From contig JAPLLW010000015.1 of NCBI GenBank assembly GCA_026387355.1, positions 27,569-91,568 of the forward strand: a stretch of DNA of 64,000 bases, in the 5' to 3' direction. Made by a program: the position numbers. The stretch's first letter is position 1. Each line of letters starts with the position of its first letter. This stretch comes from Candidatus Omnitrophota bacterium (GTDB taxonomy: Bacteria > Omnitrophota > Gorgyraeia > Gygaellales > Profunditerraquicolaceae). Shown in pieces: positions 1 to 30,000 of the stretch.

Positions 1-3000
1 GGATAATAAAGAAGAGCTGGATGGTTTTTGCAATAAATTTGAAGGCGATTTGTTTTCCATTTTTTTTAAAGAAGGTGCTAGAAGAGAAGTAAAAATTGGG
101 ATGAAGAGCGCATATATCCCCTGGGCGAATATTTTAGAGGGGATTGAAATTAAAGAGTATTCCGAAATAGTAGTGGGTTATTTGAAGAACTTTTTAGGGC
201 TTATGGAAGGATTTCATGATTGTTTTCCATTGCAGGATAAATCTTTTCGCTCCTTTCTGAATCTCTCCAGACAAAAAATGGTTGATGCGGGAAAAGAATA
301 TAATACTTGCTCGTATTGTAAATAGAATCAAGATTAGTTATATTAATTTTATGTACTTACAAAGTTACTACAAAGCTAGAGAATAATATGCGTATTTTGA
401 TTGTTAATCTGCCTTGGCATAGAGATGGTAAGCGCGGGGTAAGGGCTGGTTCCCGTTGGCCATTTACTGCGCCAATCGAAAAAGATGGTAGTATACGGTA
501 TATACCTTTCCCTTTTTTCCTAGCTTATACAGCAACTTTATTAAAAAAAGAATTTTCTGAAACCCGTTTAATTGATGCTATCGCAGAGGGTTTTAGTAGG
601 AAGAAAGCTATAGCAGATATTCAAGCTTTTAAGCCCAGCCTTTTGCTAATAGAGACATCTACCCCGTCTTTTGACAATGACATAAAGATTATTAAGGAGA
701 TAAAGAAAATATTGCCATCCTGCAGGATAACTTTATGTGGTCCGCATTCAGGATTCTTCGCAGATAGCATTATAAACAAATATCCGTTTATCGATTATAT
801 TATTATAGGTGAATATGAATATACTATGTTGGATTTGGCCAGGCAACTGGATAAAGGCTTGAGCTTAGATTCAGTAGCTGGACTTGTTTTTCGCAAGAGA
901 GGTTTATGCGTAATAAACAAATCCCGTAAGGTAGTTACCGATCTTAACCTTTTGCCATGGCCTGAAAGAGAAAGCCTTTCGATGTATAAATATAACGATG
1001 GGTTTGCTAGAATGCCGGTGCCTAACGTGCAGATTTTGTCTAGCCGGGGCTGCCCATTTAGCTGTATTTTTTGTCTTTGGCCGCAAACTATTTATCAGAA
1101 TCATCAATATCGCAGGCGTAATCCTGTTGATGTGGTTGATGAAATCGATTTCCTTGTAAAAAAGTATTCTTTTAAAGCGGTATATTTTGATGACGATATT
1201 TTTAATGCTGATGCTAGCCATGTTTTAGGTATTTGCAAAGAAATGAAGAGAAGAAATATAAGGGTTCCGTGGGCTGCTATGGGAAGGGCTGATTTAATGA
1301 ATAAACAGCTAATAGAAGAACTGGCCTCAGCCGGTCTTTTTGCCATTAAATACGGAGTAGAATCGGCAGATAAGAGGATATTGGAATTTGCTCGAAAAAA
1401 TATAGATTTAGAAAAAACTCGGCAGAATATTAAGGCGACGAAAGAATGCGGTATCAAGGTGCACCTTACTTTTTGTCTGGGATTGCCCGGAGAAACTATC
1501 GGGACAATCAAGGAGACTGCTAAATTTATCAAGGATACTCAGCCTGATTCATTGCAGGTTTCTTTTGCTACCCCATTCCCCGGAACAAAATTATATGATT
1601 ATTTACAATCTCAAGGAAAGGCGTTTTCTAAGAAATGGTCTGATTATGACGGAAATGACATCTCTATAATAAGAAATGATAAATTAAATCCGGAATATTT
1701 AAAAAGAATAAAGGCCCTCCTTGAGAGGGATTAAGGAGAGGCTAGGAGCGAAATGTGCGGTATTTGCGGTAAATACTATTTTGACCCTTTGAAACAACCT
1801 GATGAATCTATTATGCGGCGCATGAGTGCAAGTCTTGAGCGCAGGGGTCCCGATGAAGAGGTTTATTGGCAGAAAGGGGCTATTGGGCTTGGTGTACGAA
1901 GGCTCAGCATCATGGACCCTCTCCGTGGCCACCAGCCTTTCTGTAGCGAGGATGGCCGAGTACGTGTTGTCTATAACGGCCAGATTTATAATCACCGTTA
2001 TCTAAGAGAACAGCTTATTTCTCGGGGGCATTTGTTTTTTACTGATTGTGATGGCGAAGTGATCCCACACCTCTATGAGGAATACGGGGAGTTATTTTTA
2101 AAGCATATACATGGAATGTTTGGTTTGGCCTTGTTTGATTGCAAGCAAGAGAAATTGATTTTGGCACGCGACCGTATGGGGATTAAGCCTTTATATTATT
2201 CTCTTTTGCCTGATGGAGTCGTATTTGCATCTTCTGTGCGCGCAATTTTGTGCGATCCGGATGTTTCCCGTAGTTTTGACTTATCAGCGCTGCACAGCTA
2301 TTTTTCTTGTAATTATTTCCCAGGTGAGCAGACTCCTTTTACTGAAGTAAGGAAGTTGCTACCTGGAACATACATTGTTTACGAAAACGCAAAGTTTAAA
2401 ATATGCGCTTACTGGGATTTGTCCCAGAAGGGCCGATTGGATAGTTTAACTTTAAATTCTACGCAGAATGAGTTTAACTCGCTTTTTATGCGGGCAGTTG
2501 AGTCGCACCTAAAGGCGGATGTCCCTGTGGGGATTTTTTTAAGCGGAGGTATCGATTCAAGTTGTATCGCCTATGCCGCAGCAACCCTTGGAGCAGATGT
2601 AGCGGCTTTTAGCATTGGTTTTCGGGAAGCTAGCTTTGACGAGAGGCCTTATGCGTCTTTGGTTGCGCGTCAGTTGGGGATTCGCCACCACGATTGTTTA
2701 TTAGCAGGAGACCTGGGTTCTCTTCTTGGACGGATGGGGGAAGCGTTGGATATGCCAATGGGAGAACCATCTTTTTTCCCAACTTATGAACTTTCCGCAT
2801 TTGCCAGGAAATATTGCAAGGTTGCACTCTCGGGAGAAGGCGCGGATGAGTTATTGTTGGGTTACGAAACTTATTTAGCGGATATTTTGATGGGCCCTAT
2901 GTTTTGTCTCCCCGCACCTTTAAGGAAATTGATTTTTGAACGCCTTGCAAAGATTCCACCGGTGACTGATTCTTGGTTAAGCTTGCGGCAGCGATTTGAG

Positions 3001-27000: not shown

Positions 27001-30000
27001 TGTGGTCTTCTGGTTGAGGTGTTATCCAATAATGAAATTAACTTCGAAATCATAATAGTTGATGATAATAGTCCTGATCAAACCTGGAAGATTGCTCAGG
27101 CAATCGCTAAAAAAGAAAAAAGAATAAAAGTAATCCGTAGAATTAATAAAAGAGGTTTGGCTTCGGCTGTTGTTGCGGGATGGGAAAGGGCTAGCGGGAA
27201 TATCTTGGGAGTTATGGACGGAGACCTGCAGCAACCACCCGAGGTTATCCCTCTTTTAATAAACAAGTTAAATGAAGATGTTTCAATTGATGTTGTGGTT
27301 GGAAGCCGTAAAACAAAAGGGGCAGGGGTGCTCAGGCGTGGTCTTTGGAGAAGGTTTGTCTCATGGTTAGGAACCCTTATCAGCACTTTTCTTCTTCCGG
27401 GTTTACTTGCAAAAGTAAGCGATCCTATGTCAGGTTTTTTTATTTTACGTAAAGAAGTTATAGCAGGTAAGATGTTAACTCCCTTGGGGTATAAAATACT
27501 TCTAGAGGTATTAGCAAAAGGAACTTATGCAAAAGTAGCCGAAGTCCCGTATATATTTCAAGAACGTAAAAGGGGCGGAAGCAAGGCCGGATTCAAAGAG
27601 TACTTGCTTTCCTTCGTCTATTTTCTAAGATTAAGCATGCAAACAAAGGAAGGCCTTAAGATAGTTAAATAGGGGGTATTTAAGGATAACTGCAATGAGC
27701 AAGAAAAAGACTAAAGAAGACTTATATCAACATACCTGGTTAAAAAACTTGCATTATGACGTTTGGTTAGAGTGGACTATTAATAATGCGTGTAATTTGC
27801 ATTGTGCTTATTGTTGGTTTAATCTTGGGGAAGATGGCTATCTGGCTAAGGAAAGCATTCCTGAGGGAATTAGCAGTTTTTTCTATGCTAAAGGAAGTAA
27901 TAAAATAAATTTGGCTCTTCTAAGAAAAGCTCTTAATAGGGCGGATAAAGTATTTAGAATCAGTCTTACAGGGGGGGAACCCTTTTTGCTTTCTAATATA
28001 ATCGATGTTTGTTTTGAAATCACCAAAAAGCATTTCTTTTCCACAAACTCAAATTTAATCTCTGACAAGATTAAAGATTTTTCCGAAAGAATAGATCCAA
28101 AGAGAGTGGTTTTTATTAACGCCTCTTGCCATATTAAAGAATTAGAGAGGCTTAATTTATTAAAAATATATATAAATAATTTCTACTTATGTAAGAAAAA
28201 AGGGTTTAATATCGGCGCTTCTGAGCCGGCATACCCTCCAATTTTAGATGAGGTAAGCAAGTATAGGGAATTTTTTAAGAAGATAGGGATAGGATTCAGA
28301 TTTGTTAAGTTTTGCGGAAAATACAATGGTAAAATGTATCCGGATGCTTATACTAAAGAAGAATTAGAGATTTTTGGCATAGAGAATGATCCAGATATAA
28401 AAATGTTTCATTCAAAGGGGAAGCTTTGCAATGCAGGATACAATGTTTGCGTTGTTGCTCCTGATGGTTCCGCAATACCTTGTGCTCGAATAAGCGAAAA
28501 TTTGGGGAATATATTTGATAAAATTAATTTTAAGAAGGAATTAATGAAATGTCCGCATGAACTCTGCGGTTGCCCGCTTAAGTGCTACGATCCATATCTT
28601 TTTGATAAGGCGCTTGTTGGATGTGGGACTAAACCAGCGCTTGAGAAGTCTTAAAGCGCAAGAATAAATTAACGCAGAGATTGGCGCAGAGGTTTTGGCT
28701 AAATTATGACATTAGCATGCGTAGTTGCATAAATCTCTAGGGATCTAGAATAAAAATAGTTTAAACCCTGATTAAAAACTTTAGTCAGGGTATTTTTTGT
28801 CTCTTAATGGGCTATAGTTTATGGGGGTCCACGAACCTACTGGCTTAATCGATGCTCCGACCGGATTCAAGTATACCTCATTCTGTAGCATATTGTTAGA
28901 TCCAGGAGCGATAATTGAGTCCGAAGGATTTACTTTGGCAAGGCCAGGTTCATTTTGGATTATCGGAGAAGGTGGTGCTTCGATTTCTCTAAGAGGAGGA
29001 ACACCGGCAGCATTCGGGACTAATCTCGGTTCGTTATTATTGCTTGGAGTCTTTTGAATAGTGGTCTCAAATGGAAGTATTACTAAGGTAGGTGTTTGTA
29101 TCTCAAGCTTATATTCATAGCTTCTCGCAGGCTCCGGTGATGGGGGTTGTATAGTATATTCTATATCTTTATCCGATCCTAAAATTGATGGGATTATCGG
29201 GTTATTGTTTCTTGTCTCTCCGCCGGTATATTTGATATCCGAAATTTCCGGAAGACGCCCGCTCTCGCCAAGAGTAGCTGTATCTTTTCTTATCAAGGCA
29301 GGAGAGGGGTTGGGAGTAACACTATATTCATCTTTTGCAATCGGGGGTAGTTGCATAAGCATTATTGCGCGTACAGTAGGATCCATTTCTTCAAATGGCC
29401 TGCGTACATCTCTATAGGAATTATCCGGGGTATAATCTTGTCTATTGGGATGCATTTGGTCAGCGTTGGCTATCAATGGTTCTCTTGTGTCATCAGCAAT
29501 AATCTGGTTGGGCATGGAATTAACCTTGGAGGAGTAAACTTCGGCGGAATTATTCAGAGAGCTTATTTCATTACTAAAATCGTTGAACGTAGAAGAAAAA
29601 TTATTCTCTTTTGGGAATACGCTTATTCCTTCGCCGTAAAAACGTATCTCCCTACCGTAGGGTCCGGTTTTATAATCGGAGAAACCGGGTTCTTTGTTGT
29701 TTGTATCCAGCTCCCAGCGTGGCATATCCGGATTATTCGGTGTTTGCCATGCGGGACTGTAGTAATTAGCATCTATCCCTAAATCAAGCTTTTTACCCAA
29801 GGTATCAGATATATTGGTTGCTACTGCAAAATTATTTGTAACAGATGCTAATGCAGGAGCGTTGTCATCAAAGCTATTGCCGATCTGGTTACTGTAAGAC
29901 AATGGCACTTCAACAGTACTTGTTAAAAATGAGCCATCCGGCTGTTCTGTAAATTCAGTTCGAGGAAGCGTATAATTATTCGTGATATTATTTGCGGGCA

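Follow-up and report, generated by a model that had tools for sequence, protein, structure and literature searches.

The window analysed here is a 64,000-nt stretch of Candidatus Omnitrophota contig JAPLLW010000015.1 (positions 27,569-91,568 of the forward strand), and its positions 388-28654 hold an operon in which radical S-adenosylmethionine (rSAM) enzymes are interleaved with sugar aminotransferases and glycosyltransferases. With about even confidence, we take this locus to be an extracytoplasmic glycosylation system that works on a polyprenyl-phosphate carrier and whose (amino)sugar is remodelled by radical chemistry. This reading is built upon the domain identities of the proteins, the predicted folds of the GT-C membrane glycosyltransferases, the polyprenyl-phosphate class of the two GT2 glycosyltransferases, the conserved co-occurrence of the gene families and several gene fusions. 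The rSAM enzymes comprise B12-binding (B12a to B12e), Zn-ribbon (Zn1 and Zn2) and SPASM-type proteins (SPASM1 and SPL2 to SPL4); their main partners are the aminotransferases DegT1 and DegT2, the glycosyltransferases GT2a and GT2b, the GT-C proteins M611, M641 and a PMT_2 protein, and the exported protein u275 (Table 1).

Periplasmic glycosylation by means of a polyprenyl-phosphate sugar and a GT-C enzyme is well known, and to our knowledge no more than one or two conventional enzymes act on the donor sugar in the systems described so far. The class of machinery is thus itself known; new are the scale and type of radical tailoring, a clade of Tes-like enzymes and three near-orphan partner families. 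In open-access papers and preprints we found neither this Omnitrophota cluster nor any other GT2/GT-C cluster laden with rSAM genes described. A first-pass annotation of the same DNA knew of no characterised glycan pathway in which about a dozen rSAM enzymes are added to an Arn-like route.

Layout and conservation of the operon

The operon proteins (MCX57009xx, locus tags NTZ63_) were assigned by exact-sequence look-up to a 129.7-kb contig of a Candidatus Omnitrophota metagenome-assembled genome (MAG). An open reading frame (ORF) listing of 388-28654 gave 23 ORFs, all on the + strand, with a coding share of 98.2%, overlaps at nine of the 22 gene junctions and biggest gaps of 135 and 131 bp, which bears out the co-directional block with small gaps and overlapping starts and stops seen at first pass. 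The GC content of the operon is 0.346-0.366, compared to 0.407 in flanking DNA, and drops to about 0.35 in the middle (5800-22000) vs. 0.41 in the downstream housekeeping DNA. A GC content below that of the surroundings is usual for variable surface-polysaccharide loci, and the lower value of this locus fits a variable surface-glycan locus. The operon is followed by a hairpin that represents the strongest terminator-like site within 20-39 kb. Sigma-70-like promoter matches were not commoner than in shuffled sequence, so that no operon start could be called, and an Rfam search found no cobalamin or other riboswitch, its sole match being a tRNA-Gly.

Logan contig L001, which is identical to the locus, reaches about 8 kb further upstream than the window, and there the same-strand run starts about 6 kb before window position 1 with a PMT_2-like protein (25.1 bits, cut-off 26.1), followed by a U32 peptidase-family protein, an unannotated protein and a 1048-aa fusion protein, the stop codon of which lies at window positions 323-325. 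The fusion (L001 5427-8573) contains Pfam Radical_SAM, SPASM at the cut-off and two Glycos_transf_2 stretches. The whole co-directional unit measures about 35 kb and holds 12 rSAM domains. Further upstream, at L001 1-1218, lies another rSAM gene, the truncated N-terminus of which matches GT1 weakly (E=0.0035). These two genes show that the genome physically links rSAM with glycosyltransferase domains.

We compared the window proteins with 21 related neighbourhoods from many species, nearly all Omnitrophota, each of which is visible to 10 kb either side of its anchor gene. The same gene families stand together in these 21 neighbourhoods in shuffled order, with 2-12 rSAM-motif proteins each, and the cluster family is conserved almost only in Omnitrophota. 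L007 is the closest relative and retains the gene order DegT1-SPASM1-u275-M611-B12b-Zn1-Zn2-B12c-B12d-DegT2-GT2a-WbqC-SPL2. Most other neighbourhoods begin with DegT1-SPASM1-Zn-DegT2-Zn, followed by 2-6 Zn-ribbon and 3-6 B12b/c/d-type rSAM enzymes; such variation in copy number suggests a tailoring that is iterative or position-specific and not the same in all species. The second half of the operon is mirrored in L167 and L168, where M641-AsnB-WbqC are followed by DegT or PMT_2, an SGNH+TPR fusion, a B12 rSAM and a GT2 or GT4. DegT1 and SPASM1 occur together in 16 of the 21 neighbourhoods, and abut or overlap where gene coordinates were called (L003-L006, L165, L166).

The smallest cluster, L164, consists of eight genes (SPASM1, a B12::Zn fusion, u275, M611, Zn, B12, GT2a and an M641-like gene) and is flanked by FeoAB at one end and by regulators on the opposite strand at the other. 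Its fusion gene (L164 6338-9190) joins a B12-binding rSAM and a Zn-ribbon Tes-like rSAM in a single 950-aa protein, which implies that the two rSAM types act together. Three function-coupling fusions were found in total: rSAM-SPASM-GT2-GT2 upstream of the operon, B12::Zn in L164, and an SGNH+TPR protein in L167. The mixture of rSAM and glycosylation genes thus recurs beyond this locus, in synteny as well as in fusions, and L164 offers a tractable starting point for experiments.

A MiaB-like rSAM protein (UPF0004 plus Radical_SAM) is present in most related clusters (L003 15547-16881, L004 11400-12710, L006 17046-18392), and is not found in the window operon. At L165 1-1177, a few kb upstream of the rSAM cluster, ends a predicted protein of 4514 residues; giant proteins have been reported as a feature of the phylum Omnitrophota (10.64898/2026.06.07.730766).

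Radical SAM and glycosylation enzymes

An rSAM enzyme was called by a CX3CX2C motif together with Pfam Radical_SAM above the cut-off. There are 11 such genes within 388-28654, namely five B12-binding, two Zn-ribbon and four SPASM-type; taking a background of 3% rSAM genes, the probability of at least 11 among 23 is about 2e-11. The first-pass annotation had counted 12 in this range: its five class B and two Zn-ribbon enzymes stand, whereas its five SPASM enzymes become four, as the fifth clear SPASM protein (SPASM5) lies outside the operon at 32266-33330. It is the twelfth rSAM of the window, and the fusion ending at window position 325 is the thirteenth.

Each of the five class B candidates possesses an N-terminal B12-binding domain, recovered above the Pfam gathering score as had been expected at first pass, followed by an rSAM core with CX3CX2C, and from these features they are predicted to be cobalamin-dependent class B rSAM enzymes. 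B12a (CPFSCIFC at residue 222) aligns over its full length with HpnJ (TIGR03471), with a score of 263.7 bits against a cut-off of 577.6 and an E-value of 3e-78; B12e scores 160.3 bits on the same model. B12b, B12c and B12d are paralogues of 36-38% identity, and their matches are all weak (HpnJ, a ladderane-associated family, the MJ_1487 family, CysS, AprD4, TsrM and TokK); the weak PDB matches of B12c are CysS, AprD4, TsrM, TokK and OxsB. These three paralogues (10162-17275) also have an extra cysteine right behind the cluster motif (CX3CX2CC).

Both Zn-ribbon enzymes share an N-terminal Zn-ribbon (rubredoxin-like) domain and an rSAM core with Tes, the glycerol dialkyl glycerol tetraether (GDGT) macrocyclic archaeol synthase (GDGT-MAS; PDB 7TOL). 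Zn1 aligns to 7TOL with an E-value of 2.5e-36 over residues 8-287 of 452, a relationship that the first-pass annotation had missed; the alignment spans the Zn-ribbon and the rSAM core only. On the NCBIfam Tes model (NF045702), Zn1 and Zn2 score 165.6 and 157.5 bits, respectively, against a cut-off of 450. Their C-terminal domain is unrelated to that of Tes and shorter, and retains invariant cysteines. Judged by these alignments, Zn1 and Zn2 belong to the Tes/GDGT-MAS superfamily, yet are not Tes orthologues. Moreover, they occur in 2-6 paralogous copies per cluster, among aminotransferases and glycosyltransferases instead of lipid-synthesis genes. The homologues of Zn1 form a tight clade of about 45 clusters with 38-64% identity, below which come one match of about 200 bits and then Tes-like proteins at about 140-170 bits. 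The clade stands about 200 bits above the Tes-like matches. When 185,579 species were scanned with a single genome each, it turned up in fewer than 20 genomes; nearly all of these carry the label Omnitrophota, and three that of uncultured Planctomycetales or Planctomycetia. Next in similarity, at 25-28% identity, comes an unrelated Eggerthellaceae family. A positionally conserved hydrophobic segment lies at about residues 345-364 of the clade, and such segments are conserved in both the Zn and the B12b/c/d families.

Pfam recovered a SPASM domain clearly in SPASM1, whereas the other SPASM-type proteins claimed for the range score below threshold or have no Pfam match. SPASM1 has orthologues of 46-65% identity and weak rSAM-core similarity to GDGT-MAS, BtrN, MoaA and viperin. 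SPL2 has sub-threshold alignments of about 260 residues with the mycofactocin and PTO1314 SPASM families, and shares with SPL3 the C-terminal motifs CX6CX10C...CX2CX2C. SPL4 contains CNLHCAYC at residue 33 and 15 cysteines. SPASM5 is a paralogue of SPASM1 (30% identical), and its orthologues flank the core genes in L004 and L010.

The two GT2 enzymes named at first pass are both recovered by Pfam and, by sequence, belong to the clade of dolichyl-phosphate mannose synthase (DPMS), GtrB and ArnC. The best PDB match of the GT2a family profile is ArnC (E=7.8e-25, full length), followed by GtrB and DPMS, the three ranging from E=1e-16 to 1e-25; a variant FAD motif replaces DxD. GT2a is found alongside the rSAM core in L007, L017, L020, L164 and L167, and a metagenome scan with the GT2a alignment gave two possible orthologues (L084 and L085), the back-translated patterns being generic GT2 motifs. 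GT2b matches the Dol-P-Man synthase of P. furiosus (PDB 5MLZ) over the whole catalytic domain, with an E-value of 3.9e-56, then GtrB and ArnC. The two signature motifs reported earlier are present, as DGDLQQPPE at residue 101 of GT2b and as WFDE at residue 32 of the PMT_2 protein, right behind its first transmembrane (TM) helix.

Three GT-C glycosyltransferases are predicted in the operon, one by Pfam PMT_2 and two (M611 and M641) by their modelled fold, which together with the PMT_2-like protein upstream agrees with the three or four proposed earlier. The PMT_2 protein has 11 hydrophobic segments, and neither an NCBIfam nor a PDB sequence match. M611, M641 and u275 had no family match in Pfam and NCBIfam scans. 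The u275-M611 pair was found in L004, L007, L021, L164, L165 and L166. Among 1.84 billion representatives, u275 has 45 relatives, one of which shows a sub-threshold DUF3108-like match; M611 has about 22 relatives and M641 about eight. Because these families are so small, the three proteins look dedicated to the system.

The two DegT proteins, the WbqC-like protein and the AsnB-like protein are confirmed as first annotated; the SGNH hydrolase is a weak assignment, with the Lipase_GDSL models below their gathering cut-offs and one N-terminal hydrophobic segment. On NCBIfam, DegT1 matches PseC (243 bits), LegC (208 bits) and ArnB, all below cut-off. Both DegT proteins keep the lysine that binds pyridoxal phosphate (PLP), at residue 185 in SFEGTK for DegT1 (orthologues 50-67% identical) and at residue 183 in SLGLLK for DegT2 (orthologues 27-54% identical). 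The AsnB-like protein has an N-terminal MCGICG with Cys2 intact and the ATP-binding motif SGGIDSS; its top NCBIfam match is the XrtA/PEP-CTERM amidotransferase (490 bits, cut-off 817), and its gene adjoins the M641 family again in L167 and L168. Further weak NCBIfam matches among the operon proteins include LA_2486 and Lepto_7_Nterm; a Leptospira origin, at which these hint, was rejected in view of the exact-sequence assignment to an Omnitrophota MAG. A 36-aa ORF call at 4715-4825 has no counterpart in the gene calls of the relatives.

Proposed remodelling of a carrier-linked sugar and its alternatives

We propose the following pathway, in which every substrate, the order of steps, the stage of rSAM action and the acceptor are what we infer from the above. 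The ArnC-like GT2a and the DPMS-like GT2b would attach monosaccharides to polyprenyl phosphate on the cytoplasmic side of the membrane. The rSAM enzymes would remodel the sugar before its transfer, most likely while it is membrane-anchored. A small transporter, for which the EamA protein at 30847-31266 is a candidate, may flip the lipid-linked sugar, and the GT-C enzymes (M611 with its exported partner u275, M641 and the PMT_2 protein) would pass it to a periplasmic or surface acceptor. The AsnB-like enzyme might amidate a carboxylate, while the WbqC-like protein and the SGNH hydrolase might add or trim substituents.

As to the chemistry, a SPASM-type rSAM and a DegT enzyme may accomplish an O2-independent amination, in which C-OH is oxidised to C=O and then transaminated, following the logic of BtrN/BtrS; the pairing of DegT1 with SPASM1 suggests such an oxidise-then-transaminate route by gene pairing, not by sequence similarity. 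By analogy, the class B enzymes most plausibly methylate unactivated carbons or, if HpnJ-like, contract a ring, and C-C bond formation is the most plausible reaction of the Tes-like Zn-ribbon enzymes. Of the characterised relatives, which act on lipids or lipid-anchored substrates, Tes joins lipid termini, and a ring contraction of lipid-bound glucosamine has been proposed for HpnJ (PMC13459092). No NDP-sugar dehydratase or nucleotidyltransferase was found in the cluster by Pfam and NCBIfam scans, which, along with the membrane-anchored substrates of the relatives and the precedent of lipid-linked editing, argues for remodelling on the carrier. The conserved hydrophobic segment of the Zn1 clade is a further, weak indication of a membrane-anchored substrate. 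Three-component systems are such a precedent, since they edit the lipid-linked donor before GT-C transfer (PMC11127046).

A more specific product can be put forward only tentatively, and we consider it doubtful: an undescribed envelope molecule built by the Tes-like and cobalamin rSAM enzymes, which occur in pairs and multiples (2-6 of each per cluster) and are fused in one genome. These would lengthen, branch, cyclise or cross-link the carbon skeleton of a polyprenyl-phosphate-anchored amino sugar through radical C-C bonding and C-methylation, and the GT-C enzymes would deliver the product to the surface. If so, sp3-sp3 carbon coupling of the Tes type would not be confined to archaeal lipid tails but extend to the chemistry of glycans or carrier lipids, and its product would reach the surface of ultra-small, possibly predatory Omnitrophota cells. 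Should the rSAM enzymes act on a carrier-linked sugar, the clusters would hold a large untapped anaerobic sugar chemistry with new class B and Tes-like activities; should they act on a lipid, they would point to bacterial lipids not yet known and of possible biomarker relevance. Either way, the cluster defines a surface trait of an uncultured phylum whose envelopes and host interactions are essentially unstudied.

Several points weigh against a remodelled carrier-linked sugar. No operon protein reaches any NCBIfam functional (equivalog) cut-off, so that all the proposed chemistry is by analogy, and the C-methylation, epimerisation or rearrangement of an amino sugar suggested by the first-pass annotation stands on the same footing. 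For the Zn-ribbon and several of the B12 enzymes, the nearest relatives of known function modify hydrocarbon chains and not sugars. SPASM1 aligns to BtrN with an E-value of 5e-6 in the rSAM core only; the candidate flippase gene lies 2.2 kb past the operon, behind a convergent gene; and the minimal cluster L164 is devoid of DegT, from which amination would not be obligatory. The argument from hydrophobic segments is weak, since the soluble-type DegT1 also scores at least 1.6, and absences in the related loci mean little in view of the 10-kb limit on either side of the anchor.

Comparison with the Arn pathway (ArnB-ArnC-ArnD-ArnE/F-ArnT), by which L-Ara4N is added to lipid A, revealed a shared logic: a DegT-family aminotransferase, the ArnC-like GT2a, an EamA-type candidate flippase, a PMT_2/ArnT-type GT-C, and a sugar that can be edited on its lipid carrier, as ArnD does in the Arn pathway. 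The lipid-linked, Arn-like logic of the first-pass annotation is thus supported by the Dol-P-Man synthase match of GT2b, the ArnC match of GT2a and the trio of GT-C proteins. The ArnB-ArnC-ArnT route as such is not. No SDR/epimerase, formyltransferase or polysaccharide-deacetylase domain, and hence no ArnA or ArnD, was found by Pfam and NCBIfam in the 23 operon and flanking genes. The Arn equivalog scores are far below their cut-offs, with 203.8 and 128.6 bits for DegT1 and DegT2 on ArnB (NF008658, cut-off 631), and 54.5 and 72.9 bits for GT2a and GT2b on ArnC (cut-off 529). In addition, the locus has three to four GT-C enzymes and two GT2 enzymes compared to one each, and 11-13 rSAM enzymes compared to none. 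By these sequence criteria, the locus is not an Arn pathway.

The three-component systems (GtrA/GtrB/GtrC, CsbB/YfhO and the GT136 pentofuranose systems; PMC11127046) share with the locus a polyprenyl-phosphate GT2, a candidate flippase and a GT-C enzyme. M611 is YfhO-like, and auxiliary enzymes would diversify the donor here as they do there; however, the auxiliaries of the locus are a large, variable set of rSAM enzymes, aminotransferases and an amidotransferase compared to one epimerase, and the operon lacks a GtrA or MATE flippase and has the exported partner u275. In the hopanoid route HpnH-HpnI-HpnK-HpnJ, which converts bacteriohopanetetrol (BHT) glucosamine to the cyclitol ether, a GT2 adds an amino sugar to a lipid and HpnJ remodels it by ring contraction. 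B12a, with HpnJ as its best curated match, resembles the latter; by contrast, the hopanoid pathway has nothing that corresponds to the GT-C enzymes, and no hopanoid genes were seen in the window (squalene-hopene cyclase, HpnH, HpnG, HpnK). The BtrN/BtrS step of butirosin (2-deoxystreptamine) biosynthesis likewise pairs an rSAM that has an auxiliary-cluster domain with a DegT-family aminotransferase; the locus differs in having no 2-deoxy-scyllo-inosose (2-DOI) synthase and weak similarity to BtrN, the analogy coming from gene pairing alone.

The best-placed alternative, though unlikely, is lipid remodelling. The rSAM enzymes would couple (tail to tail, by C-C bonds), cyclise and methylate the hydrocarbon chains of a membrane lipid or of the polyprenyl carrier, in a chemistry likened to archaeal Tes, Grs, Gmm and Hbs, and the GT2, GT-C and DegT enzymes would build the head group, giving a modified, possibly membrane-spanning glycolipid with an (amino)sugar or cyclitol head group. 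Since the characterised relatives of the Zn-ribbon enzymes join lipid carbons, the operon enzymes might act on a lipid moiety rather than a sugar: GDGT-MAS/Tes is the only strong solved relative of Zn1, and the top curated matches of the B12 enzymes are HpnJ, a ladderane-associated B12 rSAM and the MJ_1487 family, all sub-threshold. Archaeal lipid rSAM enzymes (Grs, Gmm/Hgm, Hbs/Gms, Cds) show the same combination of Tes-like, B12-binding and SPASM/twitch types (PMC13459092; 10.1101/2023.10.20.563219), of which the SPASM/twitch enzyme Hbs bridges GDGT chains (10.1101/2023.10.20.563219). The hydrophobic segments of the Zn and B12b/c/d families and the B12::Zn fusion, which suggests a single shared substrate, are also consistent with a lipid, and published surveys report homologues of Mss, Hbs and ElbD in Omnitrophota MAGs. 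However, no prenyltransferase, fatty-acid or polyketide synthase (FAS/PKS) or glycerol-ether genes were seen in the clusters, and the Zn clade stands apart from Tes in its score, its alignable region and its C-terminal domain, with a sharp fall in score between the Omnitrophota clade and Tes-like proteins. Two to three GT-C enzymes and two polyprenyl-phosphate GT2 enzymes exceed the needs of a head group, and the DegT1-SPASM1 pairing points to sugar chemistry.

It is less probable still, and in our view improbable, that the locus makes a diffusible aminoglycoside- or aminocyclitol-like compound, or a ribosomally synthesised and post-translationally modified peptide (RiPP), exported by the nearby MacB-type ABC transporter and possibly of use to Omnitrophota in the predation or parasitism that has been proposed for them. 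Aminoglycoside pathways are marked by a DegT enzyme combined with an rSAM dehydrogenase, together with rSAM methylases of class B and an rSAM dehydratase (BtrS/BtrN, GenK, AprD4). The DegT and rSAM sets of the locus resemble them; the B12 enzymes weakly match AprD4, CysS and TokK in PDB and NCBIfam; and the stretch at 33.4-38.6 kb encodes a MacB/FtsX ABC pair, a carbamoyltransferase, SxtJ and a methyltransferase. Against this, Pfam and NCBIfam scans found no inositol-phosphate synthase, nonribosomal peptide synthetase (NRPS) or PKS, the carbamoyltransferase block is missing from all 21 related neighbourhoods, and GT-C and polyprenyl-phosphate GT2 enzymes belong to envelope glycosylation, not to soluble metabolites. 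The aminoglycoside version was rejected for want of a cyclitol synthase, no 2-DOI synthase (DHQ-synthase-like) domain being present in any gene of 388-38561 or upstream in L001. The RiPP version was rejected for want of a precursor gene, none being found in the gaps (at most 135 bp) or gene calls by inspection, which is not an exhaustive small-ORF search.

That an ordinary surface-polysaccharide locus merely stands beside unrelated rSAM genes is very improbable and was rejected: the genome is indeed rSAM-rich, as an unrelated cluster of lipid type at 51-63 kb also contains rSAM genes, but the families co-occur in many species despite shuffling, the minimal cluster L164 is bounded by unrelated genes, rSAM-GT2 and B12-Zn fusions exist, starts and stops overlap along the operon, the rSAM density far exceeds the assumed background, and protein identities of 30-65% make the synteny an unlikely artefact of close kinship.

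Table 1. Features of the operon and its surroundings (window positions; scores in bits, with cut-offs where given)
Feature	Position	Strand	Assignment and evidence
rSAM fusion, end	1..325	+	C-terminal end of 1048-aa rSAM+SPASM+GT2+GT2 fusion; start upstream of window
B12a	388..1734	+	Predicted class B rSAM, closest curated family HpnJ; B12-binding 38.5, Radical_SAM 70.1
AsnB-like	1753..3642	+	Glutamine-dependent amidotransferase; Asn_synthase 284, GATase_7 137
SPASM1	3778..4731	+	rSAM/SPASM; Radical_SAM 78.9, SPASM (PF13186) 49.1 (cut-off 21.5)
SGNH	4863..5801	+	Membrane-anchored SGNH/GDSL-type hydrolase, weak assignment; Lipase_GDSL_2 27.2, below cut-off
TPR	5830..6438	+	Exported TPR protein; TPR_19 23.6, below cut-off; N-terminal hydrophobic segment
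DegT1	6435..7505	+	Sugar aminotransferase, PseC/LegC/ArnB-like; DegT_DnrJ_EryC1 293
u275	7536..8363	+	Exported protein; always immediately 5' of M611
M611	8323..10158	+	Predicted YfhO-like GT-C glycosyltransferase; C-terminal beta-sandwich domain and terminal TM helix
B12b	10162..11601	+	Predicted class B rSAM, core B12b/c/d paralogue family; B12-binding 63.4, Radical_SAM 81.2
Zn1	11617..12975	+	Zn-ribbon rSAM; Zn_ribbon_HMPTM (PF23545) 43.7, Radical_SAM 106
Zn2	12982..14334	+	Zn-ribbon rSAM, 32% identical to Zn1; Zn_ribbon_HMPTM 54.9, Radical_SAM 69.2
B12c	14334..15824	+	Predicted class B rSAM; B12-binding 68.4, Radical_SAM 74.5
B12d	15815..17275	+	Predicted class B rSAM; B12-binding 57.4, Radical_SAM 74.4
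DegT2	17272..18528	+	Divergent 418-aa DegT-family aminotransferase; DegT_DnrJ_EryC1 222, two stretches
GT2a	18537..19259	+	ArnC/GtrB-like predicted polyprenyl-phosphate glycosyltransferase; Glycos_transf_2 81.7
M641	19325..21250	+	Predicted GT-C-fold membrane protein; C-terminal helical-repeat domain
WbqC-like	21277..21987	+	PF08889 256.9; recurs in L007, L021, L167, L168
PMT_2 protein	21984..23543	+	GT39/ArnT-type predicted GT-C glycosyltransferase; PF13231 49.0 (cut-off 26.1)
SPL2	23540..24514	+	rSAM with SPASM-like C-terminal cysteines; Radical_SAM 92.3; no Pfam SPASM match
SPL3	24532..25515	+	SPL2 paralogue (34% identical); Radical_SAM 77.1; no Pfam SPASM match
B12e	25512..26942	+	Predicted class B rSAM, HpnJ/BzaD-like; B12-binding 51.1, Radical_SAM 73.1
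GT2b	26917..27672	+	Dpm1/DPMS-like predicted polyprenyl-phosphate glycosyltransferase; Glycos_transf_2 111.8
SPL4	27695..28654	+	Weak rSAM, last operon gene; Radical_SAM 31.5 (cut-off 29.5), SPASM 16.9 (cut-off 21.5)
Hairpin	28765..28791	+	Terminator-like, 12-bp stem and T-run; between operon and convergent gene
Exported protein	28781..30475	-	564 aa, 39% Ser+Thr+Asn+Pro, no cysteine; without family match; convergent with operon end
EamA	30847..31266	+	Single-domain, 139 aa, candidate ArnE/F-like flippase; PF00892 93.6; four hydrophobic segments
SPASM5	32266..33330	+	rSAM/SPASM; Radical_SAM 65.4, SPASM 62.5

Flanking genes

Downstream of the terminator follow, in order, the convergent exported protein, EamA, an alpha/beta hydrolase, SPASM5, a MacB-type ABC pair, a carbamoyltransferase, SxtJ, a methyltransferase, AddAB and tRNA-Gly. 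One might guess that the exported protein at 28781-30475 serves as the glycosylation acceptor. The block at 32266-38561 on the + strand consists of SPASM5, MacB/FtsX with an ABC ATPase, the carbamoyltransferase, an SxtJ-like membrane protein and a SAM methyltransferase. Given its absence from the related neighbourhoods, the link of the carbamoyltransferase/SxtJ/MacB part (33-38.6 kb) to the operon is uncertain, and it was not counted in the system.

A separate cluster on the + strand (45292-62714) resembles aryl-polyene or 'ladderane-type' lipid clusters. It contains a FabG-like short-chain dehydrogenase/reductase (SDR), an FAD amine-oxidase/phytoene-desaturase-like protein, two KAS-type proteins, an acyltransferase and an AMP-ligase, in addition to a 494-aa rSAM/SPASM protein, a LolA-like protein, an MMPL/RND-like transporter and two B12-binding rSAM proteins, one of them weak. 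'Ladderane' cluster calls in Omnitrophota MAGs have been reported by a survey (PMC9902471).

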